From the IMG/VR virus record IMGVR_UViG_3300046501_000246: 64,000 nucleotides of DNA, one strand, 5' to 3'. The DNA is from a virus. The position numbers and the translations under genes are program-made. Shown here one piece after another: positions 5,692 to 57,589 of this stretch. The notes beneath the pieces were generated by a model, which saw only the letters and a program-made list of their open reading frames with translations, searched no databases and was not told the DNA's origin. Every line of letters begins with the position of its first letter. Positions within the stretch are counted from its first letter, which is position 1.

Positions 5692-5920
5692 TGTTTTCTC
5701 CTCTAATGTTGTGATCAGCCACGGCACGTGCCGCATCATCAGCGTTTAAAAAGATAGCAACAAGTTCTCTGGACCGACCCTCGTCATAGGGATAAAAATG
5801 TCTAAAAACTTTGCGCTTCTCTTCCCTGTCATATTCCTCCCACGTATTTTTATCAAACTTTCGGGTAATATTTGTGACAAGGAGACTTCCTTGATACCAA
5901 ATGTCTTTATTTGTCGTCAT
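5684..5920 (-). CDS. Hypothetical protein
   Basis: 78 aa, 4-bp overlap with the upstream gene. Confidence 0.7.
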   Translation of the reverse strand: MTTNKDIWYQGSLLVTNITRKFDKNTWEEYDREEKRKVFRHFYPYDEGRSRELVAIFLNADDAARAVADHNIRGENNV

Positions 5921-6666
5921 TTATCTTTCAAACCCTCGCCATTTACTGGATTACATGTAGCACTCAACAAATGAGGATAAATTTCCCAATTGCGCATCAG
6001 GAGCTTTAACCTGAAGCCGTATGACGTTGTGGTGCAGATATTAAGGCCGGGGGGAACGGTGGCACTGACATAATCGCTGTAGAACAGACCATGGCTATGC
6101 ATCAAGCTCCACAGGTGGTTGAACAGCGTCCCTTCGATTCTAAAATAGATGGTGTCATTCTCATCCAACGGTAGGCGTGTCGCGCCTTGCACTGAGTGAA
6201 TGTTATTTTCCGAATCAATTTCTTGACTATTGTGCAAGTAAATTTTTTCATTGACTTTTGCGGTCAAACCATAACTCACCGCCTCACCGGCAAAGAATAT
6301 CATGGGCCACAGGAAGAACCAGACAAAGATCACTGAACCAGTGAGAAGCATCCCGGCCCTCACCTTGGAGAACCGGAGATTTTCAAATTCGTCACGCTGA
6401 TACACGACAAGGCTCCAAAGGCGTCTGTACTGCTTCAGGAGCTTCCAGAACGGCCAACGAACAACTTTCCATGTCGGAATACCAACGTTCCAGAACGACC
6501 ACTGGCACGCCGCTACGACCTGAAGAATGAACCTGTGGAACATGTTCAAATCTTCCGACATGCGCTCGACGCGAGATTCCGATTTTACCTTGGCCCTGTC
6601 TAGCTCAATTTTTTCCTGAGTCTCGCGAGCCCTGCGCATTTGCTCAAGAAGATCATTGTCAGCCAT
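5917..6666 (-). CDS. Membrane protein with a C-terminal Cys-containing extracytoplasmic-type domain
   Basis: 249 aa; Trp-rich amphipathic region, TM LLTGSVIFVWFFLWPMIFFAG; start overlaps the ATPase stop by 1 bp. Confidence 0.8.
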   Translation of the reverse strand: MADNDLLEQMRRARETQEKIELDRAKVKSESRVERMSEDLNMFHRFILQVVAACQWSFWNVGIPTWKVVRWPFWKLLKQYRRLWSLVVYQRDEFENLRFSKVRAGMLLTGSVIFVWFFLWPMIFFAGEAVSYGLTAKVNEKIYLHNSQEIDSENNIHSVQGATRLPLDENDTIYFRIEGTLFNHLWSLMHSHGLFYSDYVSATVPPGLNICTTTSYGFRLKLLMRNWEIYPHLLSATCNPVNGEGLKDK

Positions 6667-8663
6667 TATTGCTCCTTCTCCACCTTAAATGATTTTGTTT
6701 CAGTATCATACTTTACAGAGAGATTACCTGTAAAGCCATCGATGGCAAAATCAGCGAAAATAGGCTCAAGATTGGTTTCGATGTATCCCGGCAAGCCGCG
6801 AGCCCCAATGACAGGGTCATAGTGATCGGCGCAGAAATTCGTGATCGTTTGTCCCTGAATAGTGATAACAATCCCTTCCTCGCCATAGACGCCAGAAATT
6901 TTATTAATTTCGCGCATAACAATATGTTCGATATGTTCCACTTCAAGCTTTCTGAAGCAAACAATGTTCTCACGGCCCGCAAATCTGTTAAGGAATTCAG
7001 GACGATAGGTATTGTTTAGGTCTTCATACGCAAGAGTTTCAGCCTCCTCCCACGTCAATTCCTCATTGAGGAAATGGGGCTGACCAATATTCGTTGTCAT
7101 GATAATGATGGAATCTGCGAACGATACGGTACGGCCCAAGTTATCAGTGAGACGCCCATCAGAAAGAATCTGAAGGAAGAGATTGAAAATCTGAGGATCA
7201 GCCTTTTCAATTTCATCGAAGAGAAGAATCTGATTAGGATTGGTTCGCATCAAGTTGGTCAAAACACCACCAGCCTCAGCCAGTTCATAGCCGGGAGGCG
7301 CACCGATAAGCTTTGCCACGGCATGCTTTTCCGAGTATTCCGACATGTCGAAGCGAGCCAGCGATTTCTCACTACCTAGGAGGATTGAGGCCAAAGCCTT
7401 TGCAATTTCGGTTTTACCAACGCCAGATGGACCGAGAAACATGAACGAAGCTTGCGGAGATTCCTTATTACGACGCACGGCGCGAGCCACTTTGACCGCA
7501 TTTGCCAACTTACCAACGGCCTGTGCTTGCCCGAAGATACGCTGACCCAAAGCGTTCTCAAGACCCTTCAGCTTTTCACGCTCGTTTTCATTAAGCTTCG
7601 ACGCCGCAATTCCTGAAATCGTGGAAAATTCTTCCGTCACCATTTCTTTCGTCAAGCGTAGATCGGCATTAATTTGAAGTTTTAACTTATCAAATTCTGC
7701 CTTATTCGCATCAACTACTTTTTGGAATTCTTTAATAGTTTTGCGAAGTTCCATAACGGCGGGAGGCTCAATCCCGATATTGAAACTGTCGCCCTTGTCC
7801 TTGATTTCCTTCAGCTTTTGCTCAATATTTTCTTCAAGATTGGCGATTTCGATTTCGCCGTCTCTTTTGTTTTTATTAAATTCTCGTAGCTTTGCAGAAA
7901 CAGTTTCGTCTAGACCGGCGTGAGCCTTGAGACGATAACTGGCAAGTGCACGATCCAGAAGTGTGACGCTACGCTCTGGCTGAGCACGGCTGAGACCCGG
8001 ATCGCGGGTACGATATTTGTTCGTAAGTGTAATCGCCTCAAGAATAGCGTCATCGTTGATTACAATCTCGTGATACTTTGACAGACCTTCAGCTGTCTTC
8101 GTGACGATTTCATGAAGCGCCTCTTTGACAGGCTCAATCACGTCCATCATTGTGAAACATTCCTTCAGGTCACTATGAACCCTCATGACAGTTTCAGCAT
8201 CTTCGTCGCGCGTTTCAAAGATAACCTGAGTCAGGTTCCGCTTAACGGACGACATTAGGTCATTAATGAAATGAACCGCGCCATTGTTACGGCAAGCCTC
8301 AATGAAATCACGCGTATCTTCGATGATCAGAATAGAATCAGGCGTCTTTTCGAGACGAGCCATGATCTTTCGGAAATCTTCACTCGTCTTGTTGGAATCG
8401 CCGGATGAGAAAAGACCATCGGTATCTAGCCAGAACAATCGCTTCGCCACGATATCAAATGGCGCGTCTGGATCAGCCTTCCTCATCTGAAGTCCAAGGC
8501 ACAGCGCGGTAATACCTACACCACCGGGACCGACAAGCACGACAGAGTTAGCCGCGCTGCGCATCAAAATAGCGCTGAGCCGGTCCAAGTCGTGATTTCG
8601 ACCCACGAGATTGAATCCTACGTGCTGTGCCAGATATTCAGAACCACGAATCAGGTAATCCAA
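6666..8663 (-). CDS. ClpA/ClpB-like AAA+ ATPase lacking the N-domain
   Basis: D2 has GPSGVGKTE, RFDMSEY, GAPPGY, LFDEIEKA, QILSDGRLTD, RPEFLNR, GARGL; D1 is degenerate; TTG start with aggag RBS. Confidence 0.9.
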   Translation of the reverse strand: MDYLIRGSEYLAQHVGFNLVGRNHDLDRLSAILMRSAANSVVLVGPGGVGITALCLGLQMRKADPDAPFDIVAKRLFWLDTDGLFSSGDSNKTSEDFRKIMARLEKTPDSILIIEDTRDFIEACRNNGAVHFINDLMSSVKRNLTQVIFETRDEDAETVMRVHSDLKECFTMMDVIEPVKEALHEIVTKTAEGLSKYHEIVINDDAILEAITLTNKYRTRDPGLSRAQPERSVTLLDRALASYRLKAHAGLDETVSAKLREFNKNKRDGEIEIANLEENIEQKLKEIKDKGDSFNIGIEPPAVMELRKTIKEFQKVVDANKAEFDKLKLQINADLRLTKEMVTEEFSTISGIAASKLNENEREKLKGLENALGQRIFGQAQAVGKLANAVKVARAVRRNKESPQASFMFLGPSGVGKTEIAKALASILLGSEKSLARFDMSEYSEKHAVAKLIGAPPGYELAEAGGVLTNLMRTNPNQILLFDEIEKADPQIFNLFLQILSDGRLTDNLGRTVSFADSIIIMTTNIGQPHFLNEELTWEEAETLAYEDLNNTYRPEFLNRFAGRENIVCFRKLEVEHIEHIVMREINKISGVYGEEGIVITIQGQTITNFCADHYDPVIGARGLPGYIETNLEPIFADFAIDGFTGNLSVKYDTETKSFKVEKEQ

Positions 8664-8692
8664 AATTTTTCTCCTTATAAGTTTAGATGTAA

Positions 8693-8731
8693 TTAAGGCG
8701 CTATTTAAAGCGCCTTAAGTTACTTTGTCAA
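8693..8731 (-). promoter_or_regulatory. Promoter whose -10 box is the loop of a 10-bp inverted repeat
   Basis: TTGACA (8731-8726), N17, TTAAAT (8708-8703); IR ttaaggcgct (8693-8702)/agcgccttaa (8709-8718). Confidence 0.6.
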
Positions 8732-8744
8732 GTGAAAGAACGTT

Positions 8745-10391
8745 TTAAATCTTGAATGATGCGTTTTCGGCAGGCTTGGGCTCTTCCGGCTTCTCAACCT
8801 TGATCGAAGAGTGGACCGCAGCGTTATCCTTGACCGCATCCTGAACCGACGAAGCGATTTCGCGGATCGCGACAAGGTTCTGTTCAAGCTCAGCTACGTT
8901 TTCGCGGGTGATTTCGGTAGCCTTCTGAACCACCTCACCATATGCACCAAGGTCTTCCATGGCTTTGACAAGTTCGTCATTCACATCACCCGTTGCCAGA
9001 GCGACACGCATGCTTTCCTTCATCGCGATTTCGTTCGTCGCATCGCTCATCTGAACCATTGTGTCACGCGCAATGGCAGAGCTTTCAGCGATTGCGGCTT
9101 GACCCACGGCCTGAAGCACGACAGAAAGTCGATCAGCGACACCAGCGACACCTTGGGTATGCATCTTGCGCACCTTTTCGACCTGAGACGAGTTGGCATC
9201 TGCCATGGTCTTGATACGCACGGACTGAGACGAAAGATCGGCAAAGGTCGTTTCGGTATCGACGGCAGAACTGGACAAGACAGTGAGATGATCGTCAATG
9301 TCGCGAAGTTCGTTGTCGCGCTTCATCTTTGTGATCATCGATTCTTCTTCGGCAGGGGTCGCAAGAGTTTCGCGCTTCGTCTTGATTTCCGAGCCAGCTT
9401 CCTTAATGCCTTCACCTAGAATGGCATATGCAGAAATCATGGACTGGTTCGCATCGGTAAGATTGTCGATTTGCTCACCCATGCCGCTAAGACTACCGCG
9501 AATACCACCGAGAGCAGACTTAGAAACTTCAACGAATTTCTTAGCCTTTTCAACAGTGTTAGCTGAATTCCGCTGATGTTCTTCCGCCGAAAGGTCAAGC
9601 ATGGCGCGGATCGTTGCCTTGGCCTTGCCAAATTCCGAGTCATCTGCCACAGAGACCGGAGCTTGAGCCGAGACAGTTGTCAGTTCCTGTTCCAGCCTGA
9701 TAAGATTGTCCTTGGCCTGAATGATAGAAATTTCATTCAGTGCAATCTTTTCGCGCGAAGACTGGCGAATCCCAAGCAGGCCGAACAGAGCTTTGTCTTC
9801 GCTGAGTCGTGCATTTTCGTTGGTCAACTCATCGATTAGCTGCTGCGTTGATGTGAAACGCTGTTTGATATTTTCGACCTTTAGATTATATTCCGTTTCA
9901 ACGCTGCGGTCGTTACGGATATCGGAGAAGATTTCATTCGTCTTCCCTTCTTTGCGCACCACGTGCATAGCATTAATGATTCCAAGAATTGGCTCCATCG
10001 CTTCATTGAATTCGATCAGGCCGTCATTCATTGTGGTATAAACTTGCTGAAGCTGCGCCGTTGTGTTGGTATTGGTCACATCGATGATGTTACCAGCCAT
10101 TTGCTCGCGCTTAAGCTGAAGGAATTCCTTGAATTCATCCAGAGCCTTAATCGTAGCCTTGTTTTCTTCCTTCGTACCAACGGTAGCAAGCGTTTTCGCT
10201 ACTGCTTTCTGCTTATCTTCGGGTGAAAGAGCAGGATCGAGCACGATCTTATAGAACGTGTTCGTTGCAATATTTTCGGCGCGGGTATCTTTTGCCGTTT
10301 CGGTCTGAACCGTCTTAGCCTTGACGCCGGTAATTTCCGCGATTCGTGCCTGACGTGCTTCCTTAAGCTTTGCTGCTCCAAAATCACTCAT
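8745..10391 (-). CDS. Long alpha-helical/coiled-coil protein (possibly TelA/KlaA-like)
   Basis: 548 aa, heptad-rich, internal KALFGLLG segment; aggag RBS. Confidence 0.75.
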   Translation of the reverse strand: MSDFGAAKLKEARQARIAEITGVKAKTVQTETAKDTRAENIATNTFYKIVLDPALSPEDKQKAVAKTLATVGTKEENKATIKALDEFKEFLQLKREQMAGNIIDVTNTNTTAQLQQVYTTMNDGLIEFNEAMEPILGIINAMHVVRKEGKTNEIFSDIRNDRSVETEYNLKVENIKQRFTSTQQLIDELTNENARLSEDKALFGLLGIRQSSREKIALNEISIIQAKDNLIRLEQELTTVSAQAPVSVADDSEFGKAKATIRAMLDLSAEEHQRNSANTVEKAKKFVEVSKSALGGIRGSLSGMGEQIDNLTDANQSMISAYAILGEGIKEAGSEIKTKRETLATPAEEESMITKMKRDNELRDIDDHLTVLSSSAVDTETTFADLSSQSVRIKTMADANSSQVEKVRKMHTQGVAGVADRLSVVLQAVGQAAIAESSAIARDTMVQMSDATNEIAMKESMRVALATGDVNDELVKAMEDLGAYGEVVQKATEITRENVAELEQNLVAIREIASSVQDAVKDNAAVHSSIKVEKPEEPKPAENASFKI

Positions 10392-11409
10392 AAATTTTCT
10401 CCTTTAGTTCGTTAACTTTCATCTTCTGCCCATGCATCCAATGTTTCGTGGTCTGTATATGACCTTTTCTTACACACTTTGCAACATATTTTTTGAATTC
10501 CCCGAAAGAAAATTCACTTGCAGTCCGAACGACATAACCTTCATGATCGTCCCACGATAAGACTATGTTTTTAATGAGTTTTTCGTCATATACGCCTCGG
10601 TACAGAGTAGGCACTGGAACAATGTTTAAAAGTTTAAACCATTCCAAAGTCTCATCCCACGAAAGGCAAACATTTTTATCGTTCCAGATAGAGAAGCCGT
10701 AAAAATAAGTTTCGAGATTATCGTAACCGATGGAGTGCTTGGCAAAGAGGTTTTCACCGCATACTCTCCAACGCTCAGGAATGTCTATGGCAATGGAACT
10801 CCAAAAGTTTTTAACCCAATTGCGACTAGGATGATTTCGACCATCAAGACTTCTGGCGTGAATATAATCATTATAAAGCGTAGTGTTTTCGCCATCCATT
10901 TTCTCTGTTACAACAACTTCCATACCGCTGAAAGCGGTCATGTCTTTCAACATTCTGTCATCCTCATTCATCCCCGGTGACCAAGGAACATGAGTCGTGC
11001 GAGGATATTTGACATAATGGGTGAACAATGGGAGCTTATCATGTAGAATCTTTTGAACCGATTCATCAAAGAAAAGCTCTCCGATCAACCTAGTTCCGTT
11101 AGGCAGGATAGGATTTCCCCATTTGTCGTAGACCTGATCGTCATAGAAATGTTCAGGGATAACTTTCTTTGTGATCCCCGCGTATCCCCTGATTTCTTCC
11201 ACCGAAATGTCTGTAGCCTCACAAGCGATGTGATGGATTCCACAGACGCTGGCACCATTTTCTAAGTAGTAACCACCCTCGGCAAACAATCTGCGTTCTA
11301 AGATGTGATGAGCATCAAGTTTTCCGCCTATTCCGCATACGACACAGCGATGACCATCTCTGGCAAAGACGCCTTCTCTGAAATCATCTCGTGTCAAAAG
11401 CTTAGCCAC
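10384..11409 (-). CDS. HNH domain fused to an ATP-dependent RNA ligase family domain
   Basis: N-terminal CVVC..AHHI..VCGIHH; C-terminal KYPRTTHVPWS, EKMDGEN, GENL, EGYVVR, KCVRKGH. Confidence 0.8.
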   Translation of the reverse strand: MAKLLTRDDFREGVFARDGHRCVVCGIGGKLDAHHILERRLFAEGGYYLENGASVCGIHHIACEATDISVEEIRGYAGITKKVIPEHFYDDQVYDKWGNPILPNGTRLIGELFFDESVQKILHDKLPLFTHYVKYPRTTHVPWSPGMNEDDRMLKDMTAFSGMEVVVTEKMDGENTTLYNDYIHARSLDGRNHPSRNWVKNFWSSIAIDIPERWRVCGENLFAKHSIGYDNLETYFYGFSIWNDKNVCLSWDETLEWFKLLNIVPVPTLYRGVYDEKLIKNIVLSWDDHEGYVVRTASEFSFGEFKKYVAKCVRKGHIQTTKHWMHGQKMKVNELKEKIYE

Positions 11410-32721: not shown

Positions 32722-32750
32722 TTGACTTTTTTGGTTTTTTGTGCCATATA
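32722..32750 (+). promoter_or_regulatory. Promoter for the primase-helicase gene
   Basis: TTGACT 32722-27, N17, CATATA (GCCATATAAC). Confidence 0.65.
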
Positions 32751-32776
32751 ACAAGCATGTGAAAAAAGGCATAATA

Positions 32777-35700
32777 ATGAAGATTACTGAAGACGAGCTT
32801 GAAAGGCTTGTTGCTGGTTTATTTGGTGACGGTCTTACTCAGGGCAATATTGAATTTTTTAATGATAAAGACGACGTTCCGCTTCAAACTCGCGATTTAG
32901 ACGAAGTCATTGATTTTGATCCCACTCACATCAGCTTAGAAACGACGGCCAATGAGCTTGTAGGCTTTGGCCTGCCCGCAGATGAAGTCCCTAGTCACTT
33001 CCCCGCACCTTCAGCTGAAGGCGGCGGTTTGAAGCTATGGTTTTACGAAAGCGCCATTGATGGTGATCTCATTCCCCAATATGGCGAGCCTGTCGTAGAG
33101 ATTCCTCTTATTTCCTACACCTTCAACGAAGACAATTTCTACGAGACGTTTGATTTCGAGGAAGTAGTCAAGGATTCTAAGCTCCTATCCAAGGTTGATA
33201 AATCAACAAAAATCTCTATCGCATTGGCTCCCACTGCTGCGGCTAAGAAGGGCGGCTGGAAAAACGTTGAAGGCACCTTCGGCGGCGTTATTGAAATGCT
33301 TACTCTCCACCAAGAGGGTAAGAAGGATGGAACTTGCTTTCTTCAAGGCGAATTGGCCGGGAATGATCGTTCCGGTAACGCTCTGGTCAAAAACTATTTT
33401 ATCGGCTTCGATCTGGATACAGGTGAAACCGCCGAAGAAATTGACGCCCGTTTGGCTGAGACTGGCCTAGCTTATGTGCGATACACGACTCACTCGCATA
33501 TGAAAGACGAATCTGAAGTGAAGCGTGATGCTTTTTTCAGATGGAGCGGAAGAGATGCAACAAAGAACGTTGAAATCAATCTTCTCAGGAAGTACCTGAT
33601 CTCTGAGAGAGGTTTCCTCCCTCGCGTTGTTGAAACTCTCGACATTATCGAAGATGCTAAGGTGTCACAAGAGGGCACACTGACGATTATTAGGCACAAG
33701 CAGATGCCTAAACATCGTATCATTTTCTTCCTTTCAGAGCCTTTTGTCTTCCAAGGCAAGGCCAATCAAAGAGAAGAACAGAAGGCGTGGAAAGAGCATT
33801 ATCACGGCTTAGGCACTGAGTTAGGCTTTGTGTATGACCATTCATGCACCGATCCGGCACGTCTATTTTATATGCCGCGCCATGCCAAAGATAGCCCATA
33901 TGAAACTAGATTCGTAGACGGCGAATATGTTGATCTACGCTCTTACGACCGCATCGAAATGAAGCGCGGCGACAAGTCTGATGCGAGTAACGCTTTCCAA
34001 GACGCAGGTAAGTCACTAGGCGCGAAGGGCGAAGGTCTTTACGTTGATGGCTACAACTTGAAGCGTTGGATCGCAACAAGAGACTGTGAGATTGTTGATC
34101 TCATTGAAGAGTATTATCCAGACGCTATTAGAACGCCGCGTACCAATGGTCCCGGCTTCCATATCGAATGCCCTTTCGAAGATGAGCATAGCAAGGCAGG
34201 CGGCGCAGGAACTTACGCTATTAACGCCTCAGACGGCGATACTGGCTTCATGATTCACTGCACCCATAACTCATGTGCGGGCCGAAACAAATTAGAATAT
34301 GTGCAGGGCATGGTCGAGCTTGAATGGTTCACGGTTGATGACCTTCAGGACGAACGCTTTTGCCCTAGCCTTATCAGGGAAGAGCCTGAAGAAAAAAGTG
34401 ACGAAAAGAAGCCGCTAACTCAAGCCGAAGTTAACATTCCAGCACTGATTGATTCAATATCGCAAGCCAGTCAAAAAGACGACGTAATTGATATTGTAAG
34501 GCAGATTGGCCGTTTAGACGATTTAGATGAGGACGATTTCGAGGTTTACCTTTCAAAAATAAGTAGAAAGACAAAAATACCTAAGAAAATTCTAAAGAAG
34601 CATCTCCCAACTAAATACGAAAAGACTGAGGAAGACAAGAATAAAAAGCTTGACGAATTGGACAAAAGGCTTCACAAATACAATGAACGATATGCCATGG
34701 TCGATACTGGTTCTAAAGTAGTTATCATGGATTCCCATAAAAAAGATATGACTTTTACCGGTCGAGATGACTGGAAAGCCCTTAAAGCGAATGAGAAAAT
34801 TTTGATCCACGAAGGAAATGAACCACGATTGGAGCACGTTTCAAAGCTTTGGCTCGAATGGGAACAGCGCCGTACCTATGAAGGTGTCACGTTCGATCCT
34901 CGTCCCAATCCTGATCCTTCAAAGTTTAATCTTTTCAAGGGTTTTGAGACAATTGCCCGAAAAGGTAATTGGGACAAGCTCAAAAATCACATCTTCGAAG
35001 TGATTTGCCATAATAATGAAGAGCATTATCTATGGGTATTGACGTGGCTCGCACACATCGTTCAACGTCCTTGGGAAAAGAAGGGCTCAGCCATTGTTGT
35101 GCGCGGCCTAAAGGGTGTCGGTAAGTCTCTTGTCTTCACTATCTTCCAAGACATTATGGGCAAGTACGGCATGAGTTCGGCCAACGCGTCTCACATTACG
35201 GGCCAATTCAACTGGCACTTTAGAGACAAGCTGTTCATGATCGCTGAAGAAGGTCTATTCGCCGGTAATGCCAGAGAAGACTCAATCCTTAAAGAACTGA
35301 TTACAGGTTCGTCTCTTCTCATGGAGCCGAAGGGTATCGATGCGTTCCAGATGGAAAACTATCTTCGCATCGTCATTATCTCAAACGAAGAATGGGTCGT
35401 CAATGCTTCATCCGATGAGCGTCGATATTTTGTGACTGAAGCTTCAGACAAATATAAAGACGATATCGTTTACTTCAAAGGCATCATTGAACAAATGGAA
35501 AATGGTGGCAAGGAAGCGATGATGTATGACCTTCTTCACTTTGAGCCACAGGGATCAGCTGGTTGGGACGTTCTGAGACAGCCTCCAAAGACTGATGCTT
35601 TGAGACAGCAAGTAACACAATCAATGCATGTTTGGGAGAAGTTCTTTGTCACTCTCGTAGAAAATATGGGCATTGATGAAGTATCTTCACAAGATTTAGA

Positions 35701-35977
35701 TAAGGTAGAGTTAGATTATGGCATAGATAATTGGGTAGACCCTAAAATTCTTAGACAACATTATTATAATAGTTTGAAAACATCCCAATCCAGATATAAA
35801 GCCGATCCAAAAACATTCCAAAAGCTAGCCGATCAATACTTGCTCGCAAAAATGGTTAGAAGGAAGAGACAAAATAACGAAGTTTGGATGAAACTACCTC
35901 CTCTAGAGACTATTATGGACCACATTCAAAATAAATTAAAAATCAAACTTGACATGATTAACATTACGGAAGAATAA
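32777..35977 (+). CDS. AEP-type primase/Zn-finger/SF3 (D5, DUF5906-like) helicase fusion
   Basis: FDLD, YTTHSH, DHSC.DPARLFYMP; CPFEDEH..CTHNSC; RGLKGVGKS, AEEG, IISN, DERRYFV; start moved to ATG 32777. Confidence 0.8.
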   Translation: MKITEDELERLVAGLFGDGLTQGNIEFFNDKDDVPLQTRDLDEVIDFDPTHISLETTANELVGFGLPADEVPSHFPAPSAEGGGLKLWFYESAIDGDLIPQYGEPVVEIPLISYTFNEDNFYETFDFEEVVKDSKLLSKVDKSTKISIALAPTAAAKKGGWKNVEGTFGGVIEMLTLHQEGKKDGTCFLQGELAGNDRSGNALVKNYFIGFDLDTGETAEEIDARLAETGLAYVRYTTHSHMKDESEVKRDAFFRWSGRDATKNVEINLLRKYLISERGFLPRVVETLDIIEDAKVSQEGTLTIIRHKQMPKHRIIFFLSEPFVFQGKANQREEQKAWKEHYHGLGTELGFVYDHSCTDPARLFYMPRHAKDSPYETRFVDGEYVDLRSYDRIEMKRGDKSDASNAFQDAGKSLGAKGEGLYVDGYNLKRWIATRDCEIVDLIEEYYPDAIRTPRTNGPGFHIECPFEDEHSKAGGAGTYAINASDGDTGFMIHCTHNSCAGRNKLEYVQGMVELEWFTVDDLQDERFCPSLIREEPEEKSDEKKPLTQAEVNIPALIDSISQASQKDDVIDIVRQIGRLDDLDEDDFEVYLSKISRKTKIPKKILKKHLPTKYEKTEEDKNKKLDELDKRLHKYNERYAMVDTGSKVVIMDSHKKDMTFTGRDDWKALKANEKILIHEGNEPRLEHVSKLWLEWEQRRTYEGVTFDPRPNPDPSKFNLFKGFETIARKGNWDKLKNHIFEVICHNNEEHYLWVLTWLAHIVQRPWEKKGSAIVVRGLKGVGKSLVFTIFQDIMGKYGMSSANASHITGQFNWHFRDKLFMIAEEGLFAGNAREDSILKELITGSSLLMEPKGIDAFQMENYLRIVIISNEEWVVNASSDERRYFVTEASDKYKDDIVYFKGIIEQMENGGKEAMMYDLLHFEPQGSAGWDVLRQPPKTDALRQQVTQSMHVWEKFFVTLVENMGIDEVSSQDLDKVELDYGIDNWVDPKILRQHYYNSLKTSQSRYKADPKTFQKLADQYLLAKMVRRKRQNNEVWMKLPPLETIMDHIQNKLKIKLDMINITEE

Positions 35978-36285: not shown

Positions 36286-36323
36286 TTGCACGTTAAATGA
36301 AATGGCAAGAGAAGGAGTTTCAA

Positions 36324-37388
36324 ATGCCGGGTATTAAATACGACTATGGCGTCTTCATTGGACGTTTTGCTCCCATCCACGACGGCCACGTCAAAGTAAT
36401 GATGGAAGCGCTTGCGAAATGCGATTATCTTATCGTAGTTTGCGGTTCCGACAACTTGGCGCGGAACACAAGAACCCCCTTTACAGCTTTGGAACGTCAG
36501 GAAATGATTCGTATCGCTACGAATCACGACGAACGGATTCTGCTCACAAGTGTTGGTGATTATCCGTATAACGATAATCTCTGGCTCGCGGAAGTTCAAC
36601 ATGCCGTAAATAGCGCGATTCGTAATCATGAACCAGTAGCGAAATATACAAATCGCGGTTTCAAGGATTACACTCATTCCATCGCGCTCGCCGGTATGTC
36701 GAAAGACGAGACTAGCTTCTATTTGAAACTATTTCCTCAGTACGAGTCAATAGCCGTTAGTCCAGCGGATTACGAAGGCGAAGTGCTTAGCGCTACAGCT
36801 GTTCGAGAATACCTTTTCGCTGGTAACATCGCAACAGCGCCTCACCTTGATCCGAGAGTGAAAACCGCAATCGGTAATCATATTAAGGTTAAACCCGAGA
36901 TTTGGGAAGGTCTGCGATCTGATTGGGAATATGAGAAGGGATATGAAGCGGCATGGGGCCGTGGTCCACACACCACGGTAGACAGCGCAGTGATTCAAGC
37001 TGGTCACATTCTCCTTATTAAACGTGGAAATGATTATGGCCGCGATCTGTGGGCCATGCCGGGAGGCTTCGTTAATCGCGAACGTCTGATTCATGCCGCT
37101 GTTCGTGAACTGCGTGAAGAGACAAGACTGAAAGTACCTGAAAAGGTTCTGTTTGGATCATTGCAAGCCTCTAAGGTTTATGACAACCCTTTCAGGAGCA
37201 ACAGAAGTCACATCATCTCTCATTGCTTCAAGTTTGTTCTTGAAAATGTGAAGGCTGGATTGCCTGAAGTGAAAGGGTCCGACGACGCGAAACATGCTCA
37301 GTGGATTCCTATTTCAATGCTGCCCACTATGCGTGGTCAGTTCTTTGAGGATCACGAACAAATTATTAATGATATTATCAACGCATAA
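36324..37388 (+). CDS. nadM: Bifunctional NMN adenylyltransferase/ADP-ribose pyrophosphatase (NadM-NUDIX)
   Basis: FIGRFAPIHDGH, TPFT..ER, LSATAVR; Nudix box GGFV..RELREET; GSDDA; start at ATG 36324 after aaggag. Confidence 0.9.
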   Translation: MPGIKYDYGVFIGRFAPIHDGHVKVMMEALAKCDYLIVVCGSDNLARNTRTPFTALERQEMIRIATNHDERILLTSVGDYPYNDNLWLAEVQHAVNSAIRNHEPVAKYTNRGFKDYTHSIALAGMSKDETSFYLKLFPQYESIAVSPADYEGEVLSATAVREYLFAGNIATAPHLDPRVKTAIGNHIKVKPEIWEGLRSDWEYEKGYEAAWGRGPHTTVDSAVIQAGHILLIKRGNDYGRDLWAMPGGFVNRERLIHAAVRELREETRLKVPEKVLFGSLQASKVYDNPFRSNRSHIISHCFKFVLENVKAGLPEVKGSDDAKHAQWIPISMLPTMRGQFFEDHEQIINDIINA

Positions 37389-37405
37389 GCGAAGGAGTTT
37401 CTAAT

Positions 37406-38830
37406 ATGCTACTTACACGTTCACTAATTACCAGTACCGACAATTACAAATTTAGCCATCCGTTTGTGGTCCGAAAGGATATTACAGGCGCTACCTCTTA
37501 TATCGAAGCGCGCAAGACGGCTTACACCGACGAAATCGTCTTCTTCGGCCTTCAGGCTTGGATCAAGGAATATCTGACCAAGAGGTTGTCTTGGGTTGAT
37601 ATTGACAGAGCGGAACGCCATGCCAAGTCGGCAATGGTCCCGTTTCACCGCAAATTGTGGGAACGTGTCGTCAATGAATATGGCGGTTATGTTCCGGTAA
37701 AGATTGAAGCTTTGGCCGAAGGCACTGTCGTTAGTCCCGGCGTTGTCGTGGTCCAGGTCAGTTCCGATGCTATGCCTGAAATCGTAGCTGATATCGAGAC
37801 TAGTTTGCTTCGTGCGATTTGGTATCCTAGCACGGTCGCAACACTGAGCCGCAAAATCAAGCAAACAATCGCCAGTGCTTATAAATACACGTCCGATCTT
37901 GACATTAAAGACCCTATGACACTGGCTTGCGCCCTCAATGACTTCGGCGCTCGTGGCACATCATCCGGTGAAACAGCAGCACTTGGCGGATTAGCGCATG
38001 CCATTAACTTCCTCGGTTCCGATACTGTCGAAGCAATTGGTGCGGCTGAAGATTATTATGAACATGATCTTGAGCGAGATGGTCCTGTTATCATTTCAGT
38101 GCCAGCTACCGAACATAGCGTAACGACTATGAATGGCGAAGCAGGGGAATCTGCCTTCGTTGGACGTGTAATTGATACGTTTACCGAGATGGGATATCCA
38201 ATTATCTCAATCGTTGGAGATAGTTACGATCTTGACCGCTTCGTGTCTCAGTACATCGGCATGGATCATAAGGAAAAGATTGAGGCTCGTGACGGCTGGA
38301 TCGTGGTCCGACCTGATAGTGGTGAACCGACCGAAATCGTACCTCATGTTCTAGAACTTCTGGATGAAAAGTTTGGCAGCACGATCAACTCTAAGGGCTT
38401 TAAAGTATTAAATCCTAAAGTTCGTGTCATCCAAGGCGACGGCGTAAATCTCAATTCTATTGAAGATATTCTTGAAGCTGTGGAAGATTTTGGCTTCTCA
38501 GCCGAGAATATTTGCTTCGGGATGGGCGGACAGCTTTTGCAGGCTCCAATGCGCGATGATTTCTCTTGGGCCATGAAGACGAACGAAATTCGTATCGGAA
38601 ATGAACGAATCGAGGTTCAAAAGAAGCCTAAGACCGACATGAGCAAGTCGAGCAAGGGTGGCCGTCAAGCCGTGGTTCACAACGGCACCAAGCTAGTGTC
38701 TGTCAAGTTCAGTGACTTGGCTAATGCTTCACATGGGACCGAGAATTACCTAAAGCCTATTTGGAACACAGGTAAATGGCTGAAGCTACCAATCACGTTC
38801 ACAGAGGTCAGGGCTAACGCTTCGATCTAA
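37406..38830 (+). CDS. nadV: Nicotinamide phosphoribosyltransferase
   Basis: TDNYKFSH, FFGLQ, WYPSTVAT, DFGARG, PATEHS, DSYD, VVRPDSG, IQGDG, FGMGG. Confidence 0.92.
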   Translation: MLLTRSLITSTDNYKFSHPFVVRKDITGATSYIEARKTAYTDEIVFFGLQAWIKEYLTKRLSWVDIDRAERHAKSAMVPFHRKLWERVVNEYGGYVPVKIEALAEGTVVSPGVVVVQVSSDAMPEIVADIETSLLRAIWYPSTVATLSRKIKQTIASAYKYTSDLDIKDPMTLACALNDFGARGTSSGETAALGGLAHAINFLGSDTVEAIGAAEDYYEHDLERDGPVIISVPATEHSVTTMNGEAGESAFVGRVIDTFTEMGYPIISIVGDSYDLDRFVSQYIGMDHKEKIEARDGWIVVRPDSGEPTEIVPHVLELLDEKFGSTINSKGFKVLNPKVRVIQGDGVNLNSIEDILEAVEDFGFSAENICFGMGGQLLQAPMRDDFSWAMKTNEIRIGNERIEVQKKPKTDMSKSSKGGRQAVVHNGTKLVSVKFSDLANASHGTENYLKPIWNTGKWLKLPITFTEVRANASI

Positions 38831-50435: not shown

Positions 50436-51617
50436 ATGAATTACGAATTCCCTCGGATCGTTCACATTCAGCAAGCGCTTGATGCAATCAAAGGCGATGA
50501 AGACCTTTTCTACGTCGTGGAAAAAGATGGCTACACCGTCATTAACTACAAGCTGCCATGCAACAAGACATTTCCGCCTGTTGTAGATCGTAACACTGCG
50601 ATTCGTAGGGAACTTCGTGGCATTAAGTTTGACAGCACAACGGGCGAGACTATATCTCGTGTTTACCATAAATTTTTCAATGCGGGAGAACGTGAAGAAA
50701 CTCTTCTTCCCTCTATCGATATTTCAAAAATCTATAATCGTTTGGAAAAGCTTGATGGGTCTATGGTTCATCCGTTACGAATCAGGGGTGCTCAACGTTG
50801 GGCCACCAAAATGGGTATTACTGATACCTCAATGCAAACCGAGAATTGGCTGGTCGCTAATCATTTTCAGGAAATTATTGAATTTTGCAACGAAGCTATG
50901 GATGACGGCTTTACTCCTATTTTTGAATGGTGCAGCCGTTTGAATAGAATTGTTGTGGATTATCCAGTAGATAGGCTTGTGCTGACTGCTGTTCGCCACA
51001 CCTTTGATGGTTGGTACATGACCTACGACGAAATGGTTAACTGTGACTCGGTAAAAGAATACGGCATCGAAGTTGTGAGCAAAAACGAAGCTCCCCTTCA
51101 TTCTATGGCAGAATATGTTAATTTCATCTACGAACTGAAGTCCGACGAAATGACTGAAGGTGAAGTCCTTCGCTTTCACGACGGCCACATGGTCAAGGTG
51201 AAGACGCAAGATTATATCAATCTTCACCGCACCAAGGATAAGATTCAGAAAGAAAGACACTTCGTCGCTATCCTCTTGGCTCAGCAACTAGACGATCTAA
51301 AGCCATTCATGCTAGCCGAAGATTTGGCTCGTGCAGAGGCTTACGAGATTCAATTAAACAAAAACATTGCAGAGCTTGGCAATACGCTGTTCGGTGAAGT
51401 CAACGCTATTTTGAAGCAGCGCCTTCCGCGTAAGGACTTCGCAATAAATTCAAAGGCTCCTCCATTGATTAAGTCCATCATTTTCCACCTATGGGATAAA
51501 GATTTTCCATTGGATGAGATGGAAGATGAAATAATGAACCGGCTCCGAGAGGCGTGTGAATCTGAGCAGAAATTTGAACGAGTCAAACCCTTAATCTTGA
51601 AAGGATGCGAGTGGTGA
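50436..51617 (+). CDS. T4 Rnl1-type RNA ligase
   Basis: RELRGIKF, HKFFN.GE, EKLDGSM, TPIFEW, EGEV, VKVK. Confidence 0.85.
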   Translation: MNYEFPRIVHIQQALDAIKGDEDLFYVVEKDGYTVINYKLPCNKTFPPVVDRNTAIRRELRGIKFDSTTGETISRVYHKFFNAGEREETLLPSIDISKIYNRLEKLDGSMVHPLRIRGAQRWATKMGITDTSMQTENWLVANHFQEIIEFCNEAMDDGFTPIFEWCSRLNRIVVDYPVDRLVLTAVRHTFDGWYMTYDEMVNCDSVKEYGIEVVSKNEAPLHSMAEYVNFIYELKSDEMTEGEVLRFHDGHMVKVKTQDYINLHRTKDKIQKERHFVAILLAQQLDDLKPFMLAEDLARAEAYEIQLNKNIAELGNTLFGEVNAILKQRLPRKDFAINSKAPPLIKSIIFHLWDKDFPLDEMEDEIMNRLREACESEQKFERVKPLILKGCEW

Positions 51618-55853: not shown

Positions 55854-56619
55854 ATGAATATTATGATTGATTACGACGCGACCTATACAGCTGATATTTC
55901 TCTGTGGAGAATGGTCATACCTATGTTTTTGGACCACGGCCATAAGGTCTATCTAGTCACATCAAGGGGAAGAGACACGCCGGTTGAACTGGTTAATGAT
56001 TTCACTCCCCTAAATATTCCCATCATCTATTGCACGTACCGAGCCAAGAAAAAAGTCTGCGAGGCTCAGGGAATTAAAATTGATATTTGGATCGATGACG
56101 ATCCCTATTACATCGTACATGGATTCATTGAAGATGCTGAAGATATTCAAAACGGACCCGGAGACAGTAACACCGTTTGGCATTTGGCTGGCGGTAAGGC
56201 TTAACCGAGGCGTAAACTTTATTTGGCCCTTCGTGCGCCGCGAGAAATATGAAGACGCGCTGGCACGAAACAGGCAAATCAGCTTTGAATTATATCAAAG
56301 CCTAGAAAATTTGGAAGAGTTGGAAAAGTTTCAATTTACTAAAGGCCAACGATACCTCCCGTTTCCTGATTATGAATATTCGTTCAAGCATCAGGAAACG
56401 GGAGATGAGCGCCCCTTTACCCGAATAAGTTTAAGCGCCAAACCTCTTCAAAGTCATTATCATGTTGATACCTATCGATTAAATTTTGAAGAGAGTTCAG
56501 ACTATATTAAAAATTTATTGATACGCCAAGCCGGTGAACTTTTCAGAAAAAAGGGAGAGGCTGATATGCGTCAAGTTATTGAAAGTTTATCCCAAAATGA
56601 CGACAGGAAAATTTATTAA
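55854..56619 (+). CDS. HAD-like protein and a hypothetical protein
   Basis: 55854-56204 (IDYDATY, VTSR, WIDDDP); about 56200-56619. Confidence 0.65.
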
Positions 56620-57589
56620 ATTCCCTTCTATCGAAGCGTTTTCAAGTGTTAATGCAACGGTTAAAAGACGTTTTGAACTTGACAATCGGCCAAAGGTGGT
56701 GTACCGTGGCAAAGTCAAACTTCACGGAACGAACGCCGGAATTCGCGTCGATCCAGATGGCACAGTGACTTGCTTCAAGAGAACCGGAGTCTGCAACGTC
56801 GAGAACGATAATGCGGGATTTGCTAATTGGGTGGAGACTGTTAAAAAGCAGCTGTTCACGTTCGGCTTCAGTTATGTAATTTATGGTGAGTGGGCCGGTC
56901 CCGGAATCCAGAAGAAAGTAGCTGTATCTCAAATTGAGAAGAAAACGTTCTTTGTTTTCGCCATTTTAAATATGCACACGAATAAAATTGTGGTAGACCC
57001 GGATCGCATAAAGGCGTGCCTTGGTAAAGAAATTTTGCCATTCGAAATTATTCCTTGGGCTAAAGGAACTGACGTAGAGGTCGATTTCCGTCTTCAAAGT
57101 TCAATGGAAGCCGCGACCAAAAACATTTCTTCTTGGGTAGAAGAATGTGACAAGGTTGATCCTTATATTAAAGAGCGTTACGGGATTGAAGGCATTGGCG
57201 AAGGGTATGTTTTTATTCCTCTAGTTGATGAGATGTCATTCGATGTTTACAGCGATTACATTTTCAAGGCTAAAGGTGAAAGTCATCACGTCTCATCTTC
57301 GGAGAAGAAGGTTTCGATCCAAATCGATCCAGCCGTGTTAGAAGGTGCAGCGGCTTTTGCCAAGGAGTTTGTTACTCAAGGTCGCTGCGAACAAGGCGTA
57401 ACTGAAGCTTGCGGCGGGGAAGCCGTGATGAAGAATATGGGCGCTTTCATGAAGTGGATCGGCCAAGACGTGCAGAAAGAATCCGTTAATGAGTTGGAAG
57501 CTTCTGGCCTAGATTGGAAGAACGTTTCTAAAGCCGTAAACCAACAAGCGAGAGATTGGTATATCCTCGCAACTGAGAGGAATTTATAA
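56597..57589 (+). CDS. Rnl2-type RNA ligase family protein
   Basis: KFP.IE.F, KVKLHGTNAG, YGEWAGPGIQK, GEGYV, FKAKG; start at ATG 56597. Confidence 0.8.
   Translation: MTTGKFIKFPSIEAFSSVNATVKRRFELDNRPKVVYRGKVKLHGTNAGIRVDPDGTVTCFKRTGVCNVENDNAGFANWVETVKKQLFTFGFSYVIYGEWAGPGIQKKVAVSQIEKKTFFVFAILNMHTNKIVVDPDRIKACLGKEILPFEIIPWAKGTDVEVDFRLQSSMEAATKNISSWVEECDKVDPYIKERYGIEGIGEGYVFIPLVDEMSFDVYSDYIFKAKGESHHVSSSEKKVSIQIDPAVLEGAAAFAKEFVTQGRCEQGVTEACGGEAVMKNMGAFMKWIGQDVQKESVNELEASGLDWKNVSKAVNQQARDWYILATERNL

Follow-up and report, generated by a model that had tools for sequence, protein, structure and literature searches.

Hsp100 motors are described in textbooks as general disaggregases or as partners of proteases. 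Paralogues serving a single client, e.g. ClpV, are rare, and each of them exposed a new cell-biological machine. ClpV (TssH) with VipA/VipB (TssB/C) was used here as working analogy, i.e. an Hsp100 paralogue that serves one structural client whose genes lie nearby. The comparison also included Vps4 with ESCRT-III and PspA/Vipp1, TelA/KlaB with TelB/KlaC (PF05816), and PTEX of Plasmodium (HSP101 with the EXP2 pore). The locus under study lies in a stretch of viral DNA of 64,000 nucleotides (IMG/VR record IMGVR_UViG_3300046501_000246; the whole stretch is referred to as the window). It consists of three genes termed H, C and M, which encode a long-helix protein, an ATPase derived from ClpB and a membrane protein. 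The H-C-M trio was described in no paper or family library searched. It is an Hsp100 paralogue with private partners, in which a derivative of ClpB, with a first ring that is dead throughout the family, is tied to two wholly unannotated protein families. Since more than 70 bacterial species and about 12 large phages keep the trio together, it is regarded as an undescribed machine. Tentatively, we favour a dedicated remodelling machine, in which C would act on assemblies of H at the inner membrane and remodel them, M being the anchor.

Linkage of H, C and M in bacteria and phages

By word-index search, 32 relatives of H were retrieved, some of them on bacterial chromosomes. On a 1.5-Mb alphaproteobacterial contig and in Pokkaliibacter, H was followed in the same order by a ClpB-like gene and a gene of 265-299 amino acids (aa), and the flanks consisted of unrelated housekeeping genes. 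Both third genes aligned to full-length M (E 7e-10 and 2e-12). For the bacterial survey, one genome per species was scanned, which yielded 78 loci. These belonged to Alphaproteobacteria (Dongia, Taklimakanibacter, Maritalea, Mameliella, Sagittula), Gammaproteobacteria (Pokkaliibacter, Motilimonas, Vibrio, Halopseudomonas, Alcanivorax, Luteimonas), Micavibrio and Bdellovibrionota, Bradymonadales and Myxococcota, and others. With profiles run against every open reading frame (ORF) of the loci, H, C and M were placed in this order on one strand in about 70 of the 78. Both C and M were missing from seven loci, six of which ended just past H at a contig end and one of which was a solo Motilimonas H paralogue. 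One more truncated contig carried C with M missing.

In the viral collection, H was carried by 12 IMG/VR contigs (54-519 kb), and C and M were present in H-C-M order in all 11 whose flanks were long enough; one of these is the Agrobacterium jumbo phage Atu_ph07 (490 kb). By protein search of the phage database, Atu_ph07 was the only source of relatives of H (gp493, 47% identity), C (gp492, 55%) and M (gp488, 51%); megablast of the region against the phage collection gave no match at the DNA level. Small ORFs stood between module members in three phages, Atu_ph07 among them, with the full set retained. These inserted ORFs (in Atu_ph07, L103 and L104) were unannotated. In Atu_ph07, gp489-gp491 sit between C and M, and in L104 a 2.5-kb insert separates H and C.

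The original prediction had proposed that the three genes form one system and had set the absence of co-occurrence beforehand as refuting. Such an absence was not seen; same-order co-occurrence was found in the bacterial loci and phage contigs given above. H, C and M are inherited together as a real unit. Clustering of ORFs over 82 loci recovered H, C and M in 82, 75 and 72 loci, respectively, with the next real family in 16, and revealed no fourth conserved gene around the trio. Order and strand were retained down to approximately 32% identity in several phyla and in phages, with all flanking genes changing. It is therefore scarcely credible that the genes are adjacent merely by common descent or chance and form no functional unit, the more so as C and M are translationally coupled. 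What could be said for mere adjacency is that an interaction of the three proteins is something we infer, and that three phages have small genes between the members.

The spread of the trio (at least 70 bacterial species of several phyla plus a lineage of very large phages) means that, once its role is solved, hundreds of "hypothetical" genes could be named and assigned a function. One way in which giant phages manage the host membrane might also be explained by it. The system is tractable, with cultured bacteria that carry it (Pokkaliibacter plantistimulans, Motilimonas cestriensis, Mameliella alba, Halopseudomonas bauzanensis, Taklimakanibacter albus) and a cultured phage (Atu_ph07).

C, a ClpB-derived motor

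The ORFs had been read as a 548-aa helical protein (H), a 665-aa Hsp100-type ATPase (C) and a 249-aa membrane protein (M), and all three were exact. C matched the Pfam domains AAA_2 (8e-51), AAA_lid_9 and ClpB_D2-small, in agreement with an Hsp100 ATPase. It matched phrog_4871 at 1e-170 and was 49% identical to its Pokkaliibacter homologue. Its best profile match was ClpB. As in ClpB/Hsp104, C is a two-tier Hsp100 with a coiled-coil middle domain at AAA_lid_9 and an AAA_2 ring 2 with ClpB_D2-small. The middle domain is located in the ring-1 lid, i.e. a helical insert of about 100 aa lies between AAA_lid_9 (184-283) and ring 2, with the coiled coil at approximately 245-345. In the phage C this domain is 67 residues shorter than in the Pokkaliibacter homologue. 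The region past sensor-1 was also ClpB-like.

C differed from ClpB/Hsp104 by the absence of Clp_N (Pfam). It begins at the first AAA module, and its relatives align to the ClpB model from position 175 onward only. The score against ClpB (TIGR03346) was 374 bits (423 bits for the Pokkaliibacter homologue), below the cut-off of 1232. C also stayed far under the NCBIfam cut-offs of ClpA, ClpV, ClpK and ClpG, with 297 bits against ClpV/TssH (TIGR03345; cut-off 885). By this score C is no member of ClpV, and no sheath genes were found nearby either; the ClpV-like analogy of the original prediction is not established.

The second difference concerns ring 1, which is degenerate. In C it has a GPGGVGIT Walker A, an IIED Walker B and a pore loop without an aromatic residue. 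In all 72 C relatives, the position of the Walker A lysine was occupied by C, V, I, L or A, the Walker B glutamate was replaced by aspartate, and the pore loop lacked an aromatic residue. Ring 2 is canonical (GPSGVGKT, FDEIEKA, pore loop GYEL, sensor and arginine motifs); its Walker A and B, sensor and arginine motifs and the pore-loop Tyr/Phe were retained among the relatives, phage copies included. C thus falls outside the class with two competent ClpB AAA+ rings carrying pore-loop aromatics, since ring 1 fails. Judged by these motifs, only ring 2 of C is predicted to be able to work as ATPase. Nothing relevant on an atypical ClpB that combines a dead first ring with partners was returned by literature searches.

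The (I/L/V)-G-(F/L) loop for ClpP docking was not found in ring 2, such tripeptides being present only at residues 15 and 56; ClpB likewise has no such loop. The database label "ATP-dependent protease" of phrog_4871 is therefore unsupported. All five host genomes examined also encode a canonical ClpB (1385-1446 bits, above the curated cut-off). Because module-bearing bacteria keep this true ClpB, C is considered an extra, specialised ClpB paralogue, and a further difference from ClpB is that its gene is always accompanied by those of two private partners. The study of C could reveal how targeting works in a one-ring Hsp100 that has no N-domain. In four loci the ClpB-like gene was read as two ORFs, corresponding roughly to the dead and the live ring, by frameshift, assembly error or genuine split.

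It is doubtful that C is a stand-alone unfoldase for quality control, i.e. a membrane-localised general disaggregase. H would then be a co-chaperone or adaptor in place of the DnaK and N-domain functions, and M would position the complex at the inner membrane, where aggregated or mis-inserted membrane proteins would be rescued; the phage could use it for coping with massive protein synthesis. This would agree with the profile proximity of C to the ClpB, ClpK and ClpG disaggregases and with the kept middle domain. A relaxed sigma-32-like element (CTGG-N18-CCTATAT), located 35-39 nt upstream of H only in the closely related loci L010, L011, L017 and L028 of one alphaproteobacterial clade, points the same way; it resembles the alphaproteobacterial sigma-32 promoter consensus. 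A chaperone was also the reading of the Atu_ph07 authors, who listed gp492 simply as ClpB chaperone with its neighbours unmentioned, and viewed it beside phage DnaJ and other Clp proteins (PMC6102473). However, the strict alphaproteobacterial RpoH pattern was absent upstream of H in all 78 loci, and hosts already own a canonical ClpB. The dead ring 1 and the missing N-domain speak against a broad substrate range. H itself, with about 550 aa, its own conserved C-terminal tag and a position before a stem-loop, looks more like a client than like an adaptor.

Proteins H and M

H is a soluble protein. Its AlphaFold2 (AF2) model, computed with 29 relatives, was all-helical with very long antiparallel helices (mean predicted local distance difference test score, pLDDT, 74.6), as the helical protein of the original prediction required. 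A hairpin tip was located at 197-209, and the N-terminus (1-33) and C-terminus (523-548) were disordered. An FG.GG motif is conserved at the tip (approximately 203-207). The conserved core comprises 81-160, 255-300 and 380-500, with a peak at 410-440, which corresponds to a small-residue helix (Ala/Gly-rich, 405-445). A full profile search gave 367 H representatives at 50% identity, nearly all of 530-600 aa.

In nearly all operon-linked H, a variable Ala/Pro/Gly/charged linker is followed by a terminal PF(K/G)-hydrophobic motif (e.g. PFKL, PFGL, PFKI; SFKI in the H of the window). In some clades a related DFxQFNK or PFSDFKI ending takes its place. All these endings are absent from two solo H paralogues without adjacent C or M. 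The layout of linker and end motif would be typical of a docking or entry tag. A second, divergent H paralogue (27% identity) without the C-terminal PF motif was observed in Motilimonas. In M. cestriensis it stands solo and adjoins a DDE transposase, and in M. eburnea it lies 1.4 kb upstream of a complete H-C-M operon. The neighbours of these paralogues (transposase, AraC regulator, VWA protein, MiaE) offered no functional clue.

None of 29 relatives of H matched a Pfam family, and no PHROG, NCBIfam or PADLOC family covered H; the same held for M in all four libraries. The statement of the original prediction that no named phage system has this composition therefore stands. H profile searches against PDB sequences gave chance matches only (E >= 0.02), and Foldseek against PDB found no match at E <= 0.001 for the H or the M model. 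In fold searches with VIA-align, the best match of H (Z 11.5) was within helical-bundle noise. Only hairpin 163-249 superposed on the hairpins of Snf7, CHMP4B and Shrub (Z 9.3-9.4, root-mean-square deviation (rmsd) 1.2-2.2 Å, 72-78 residues), as any helical hairpin would. PspA_IM30 and Snf7 had no Pfam match among 29 relatives.

TelA was considered since it had been named as a likeness of the locus. In language-model space, no named neighbours lay nearer to H than TelA clusters (0.89). No TelA (PF05816) hidden Markov model (HMM) match at E <= 1 was obtained in 29 relatives. In two genomes with both genes (G002, G003), the TelA HMM found the genuine TelA genes and never H. The hhalign probability was 0.1%, with a shallow TelA profile of two sequences. 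These profile tests do not support a TelA-type H; a homology more remote than such profiles detect could still exist.

Matches of H to Cry6Aa (Z 9.7, 219 aligned residues), XaxAB (Z 9.6, 228 aligned residues) and IpaB (Z 9.3), which were tied with designed bundles, bear on a further explanation, which we consider improbable. H would be an alpha-helical pore-former or translocator whose FG.GG tip and helix 405-445 insert in the membrane, C would unfold cargo or H, and M would be the membrane platform, in resemblance to PTEX. The long antiparallel bundle, whose hydrophobic tip is glycine-rich and conserved, the small-residue character of the most conserved stretch and the intact threading ring of the motor (ring 2) are in line with a pore. 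However, all Z values are below the level of about 13 that helical bundles are expected to reach by chance, with an rmsd of 8.5-10.9 Å for the pore-former matches. A segment hydrophobic enough for a transmembrane (TM) helix was found neither in H nor in most of its relatives. The conserved set includes no signal peptide and no outer-membrane component, and the single TM helix of M would be a poor channel alone.

M was confirmed as a membrane protein by one strong hydrophobic helix at 107-125 (hydropathy). It is preceded by a helical N-terminus (1-103) and followed by a beta-barrel (137-245); in the AF2 model (pLDDT 83.5) the N-terminal part consists of two helices. Because a Lys/Arg-rich stretch (10 of 37 residues) precedes the TM helix, the N-terminus is assigned to the cytoplasm by the positive-inside rule. 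On this assignment, M is predicted to be a bitopic inner-membrane protein with the barrel facing outward. Of 17 relatives, 15 conserve Cys211 and 16 conserve Cys238, and the pair would fit a periplasmic disulfide. The barrel matched oligonucleotide/oligosaccharide-binding (OB) domains of SSB, RPA and AB5 B-subunits (Z 6.0-7.5, 84-103 aligned residues), with none above Z 8.

M may be a distant relative of DUF1523 (PF07509); as papers assign no function to DUF1523, such a kinship would say little about M. Common to both are a TM helix, a beta domain of about 120 aa after it and the motif YG-x-R...(Y/F)P. With hhalign, 83 M relatives matched six DUF1523 proteins over this motif (E 2-3e-4, probability 39-49%), and the match was colinear when relaxed. 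By hmmscan, all 17 relatives remained below the DUF1523 threshold. The Atlas comparison gave weak matches (feature score 0.80, structural TM-score 0.33-0.37). Unlike M, DUF1523 proteins lack the cytoplasmic N-terminus of about 100 aa and have a second C-terminal TM helix.

Proposed mechanism, phage context and locus features

The three ORFs are arranged head to tail on one strand. The claimed 1-bp overlap of C and M was found as a shared base of the C stop and the M start (TAATG), and the ribosome site for M (GAGAAGGAG) is located within the end of C. Across loci, C-M spacing was tight (median 11.5 nt). C has its own Shine-Dalgarno (AAGGAG), 7 nt upstream of the TTG start. In the H-C spacer, a hairpin with a perfect 10-bp stem and a 6-nt loop was detected (-20.6 kcal/mol, z -3.5), which matched in a terminator-like scan but had no T-run after it on the sense strand. 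It may possibly be an attenuator or mRNA-stabilising element that sets H above C and M. H-C spacers of at least 35 nt were structured (z < -2 against shuffles) in 32 of 48 related loci. Because the H-C spacer is structured while C-M spacing is tight, the pattern would fit an excess of H over an equimolar C-M pair.

The favoured remodelling of H by C takes linkage, domain anatomy and topology as observed; from these we infer client identity, polymer formation and a role in infection. H would be produced in excess and form a helical assembly at or near the inner membrane. A hexamer of C would engage H, probably via its free C-terminal tail with the PF(K/G)-hydrophobic motif, and ring 2 would pull out H subunits, by which the assembly is recycled or reshaped. 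M, whose translation is coupled to that of C, would hold the motor at the membrane or trigger or gate it there, and its barrel would link the motor to the periplasm. The phage would use the module to maintain or remodel the inner membrane of its host over the long infection cycle of a very large phage. H is put forward as client because nearly all operon-linked copies carry the disordered linker and end motif, and the motif is missing from the solo paralogues. M is placed at the membrane because of its one TM helix, the positive-inside charge pattern, the conserved Cys pair and the OB-like barrel.

With Vps4/ESCRT-III this arrangement would share a helical-hairpin protein, a flexible tail, a short docking motif, an AAA+ ATPase partner and a membrane site. 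C is of Hsp100 type and not of the meiotic clade, and H has about 2.5 times the length of an ESCRT-III subunit. ClpV differs from C in that it recognises its client by the N-domain, which C lacks; neither Hcp, VgrG, baseplate nor sheath genes are conserved near the module, and H is all-helical, unlike TssB/C. TelA systems share a cytoplasmic long-helix protein and a small membrane protein, but have no Hsp100.

Several points weigh against this mechanism. No result here shows contact among H, C and M. H has no detectable membrane-binding segment (maximum hydropathy 1.31) and no significant similarity to PspA, ESCRT-III, TelA or solved folds, and its polymer formation is purely conjectural. Operon order and stem-loop suggest a stoichiometry and do not measure it, and the inserts between genes in three phages make tight coupling not obligatory. 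The conserved neighbourhood is equally compatible with several other mechanisms.

In a wider and rather unlikely form, H-C-M would be an unrecognised membrane-remodelling or protein-translocation machine, common among Gram-negative bacteria and phages, in which an Hsp100 with a single live ring drives assembly and disassembly or membrane insertion of a long-helix protein of a new class. If true, it would be a functional counterpart of Vps4/ESCRT-III or of PTEX HSP101/EXP2, captured by jumbo phages for host envelope control.

As to origin, the tree of H joined the window, Atu_ph07 and metagenomic sequences in a fully supported clade of 13 members. It is adjoined by further phage-like sequences and by a clade of Alphaproteobacteria (Dongia, Taklimakanibacter, Parvibaculaceae). 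Among the bacteria, the tree was discordant with taxonomy. The higher guanine-cytosine (GC) content noticed by eye in the original prediction was recovered in windowed analysis, with 47.5% for the block and a window mean of 43.5% (standard deviation 1.3%, 4475-bp windows); the H-C-M block was top among 596 sliding windows of equal length. Because of this excess and the H tree, horizontal movement between Alphaproteobacteria and their large phages fits, with the tree rooted at its midpoint only, from which the direction of transfer cannot be read.

The same data touch on a conflict module (defence, counter-defence or superinfection exclusion) that moves horizontally between bacteria and phages, e.g. 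with H as a membrane effector held or released by C and sensed via M. In its favour are the patchy cross-phylum distribution, the discordant H tree, the presence of the module in lytic jumbo phages, a GC content foreign to the phage surroundings, and matches of the ring-2 domain of C to the PADLOC candidate-system proteins PDC-M37B and DolB. However, these matches cover the generic AAA_2 domain only, and no defence model matched H or M. The bacterial flanks are ordinary housekeeping genes without recurrent defence-island neighbours, and high sequence conservation and uniform lengths are unlike fast-evolving conflict genes. We thus regard such a role as very unlikely.

Coordinates of the module, of related features in other loci and of further genes of the window are given in Table 1.

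Table 1. Positions of features in the window and in compared loci.
Feature	Location	Strand	Description
H	8745-10391	minus	548 aa, ATG start
C	6666-8663	minus	665 aa, Hsp100 ATPase, TTG start
M	5917-6666	minus	249 aa, one transmembrane helix
H-C intergenic spacer	8664-8744	minus	81 nt; hairpin and Shine-Dalgarno
H-C spacer hairpin	8693-8718		
HNH-RNA ligase fusion	10384-11409	minus	341 aa
1078-aa protein	32741-35977	plus	Largest gene of the window
NAD-salvage pair	36297-38830	plus	NMNAT-NUDIX fusion and NAMPT
RNA ligase	50436-51617	plus	
RNA ligase	56534-57589	plus	
Two-ORF ClpB-like gene	L004 8735-10877		
Two-ORF ClpB-like gene	L012 1677-3826		
Two-ORF ClpB-like gene	L052 5051-6765		
Two-ORF ClpB-like gene	L059 7813-10136		
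Second H paralogue, Motilimonas	L081 5911-7455		
Second H paralogue, Motilimonas	L025 2861-4480		
Insert in Atu_ph07	L001 5204-6656		Small ORFs
PRPP synthetase and NAMPT	L005 4626-6958		Directly upstream of H

The module had been placed among tiny hypothetical genes, which holds downstream; upstream, the neighbour is a fusion of an HNH-type Cys/His domain (residues approximately 8-117) with an Rnl2-type RNA ligase (PF09414 at 2e-31; phrog_24030 at 9e-138). Between its stop and the start of H there is an overlap of 8 nt. The fusion is outside the conserved module, as no homologue was found upstream of H in other loci. Two further RNA ligase genes, one T4 Rnl1-type (PF09511) and one PF09414-type, bring the number of RNA ligases in the window to three.

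The other genes of the window have typical large-phage functions (NAMPT, NMNAT-NUDIX, DNA ligase, SNF2 helicase, DUF5906 protein). The sole Pfam match of the 1078-aa protein was DUF5906 (residues 788-895). NAMPT was also observed next to H in L005, an unrelated phage-like contig, where it stands together with PRPP synthetase.

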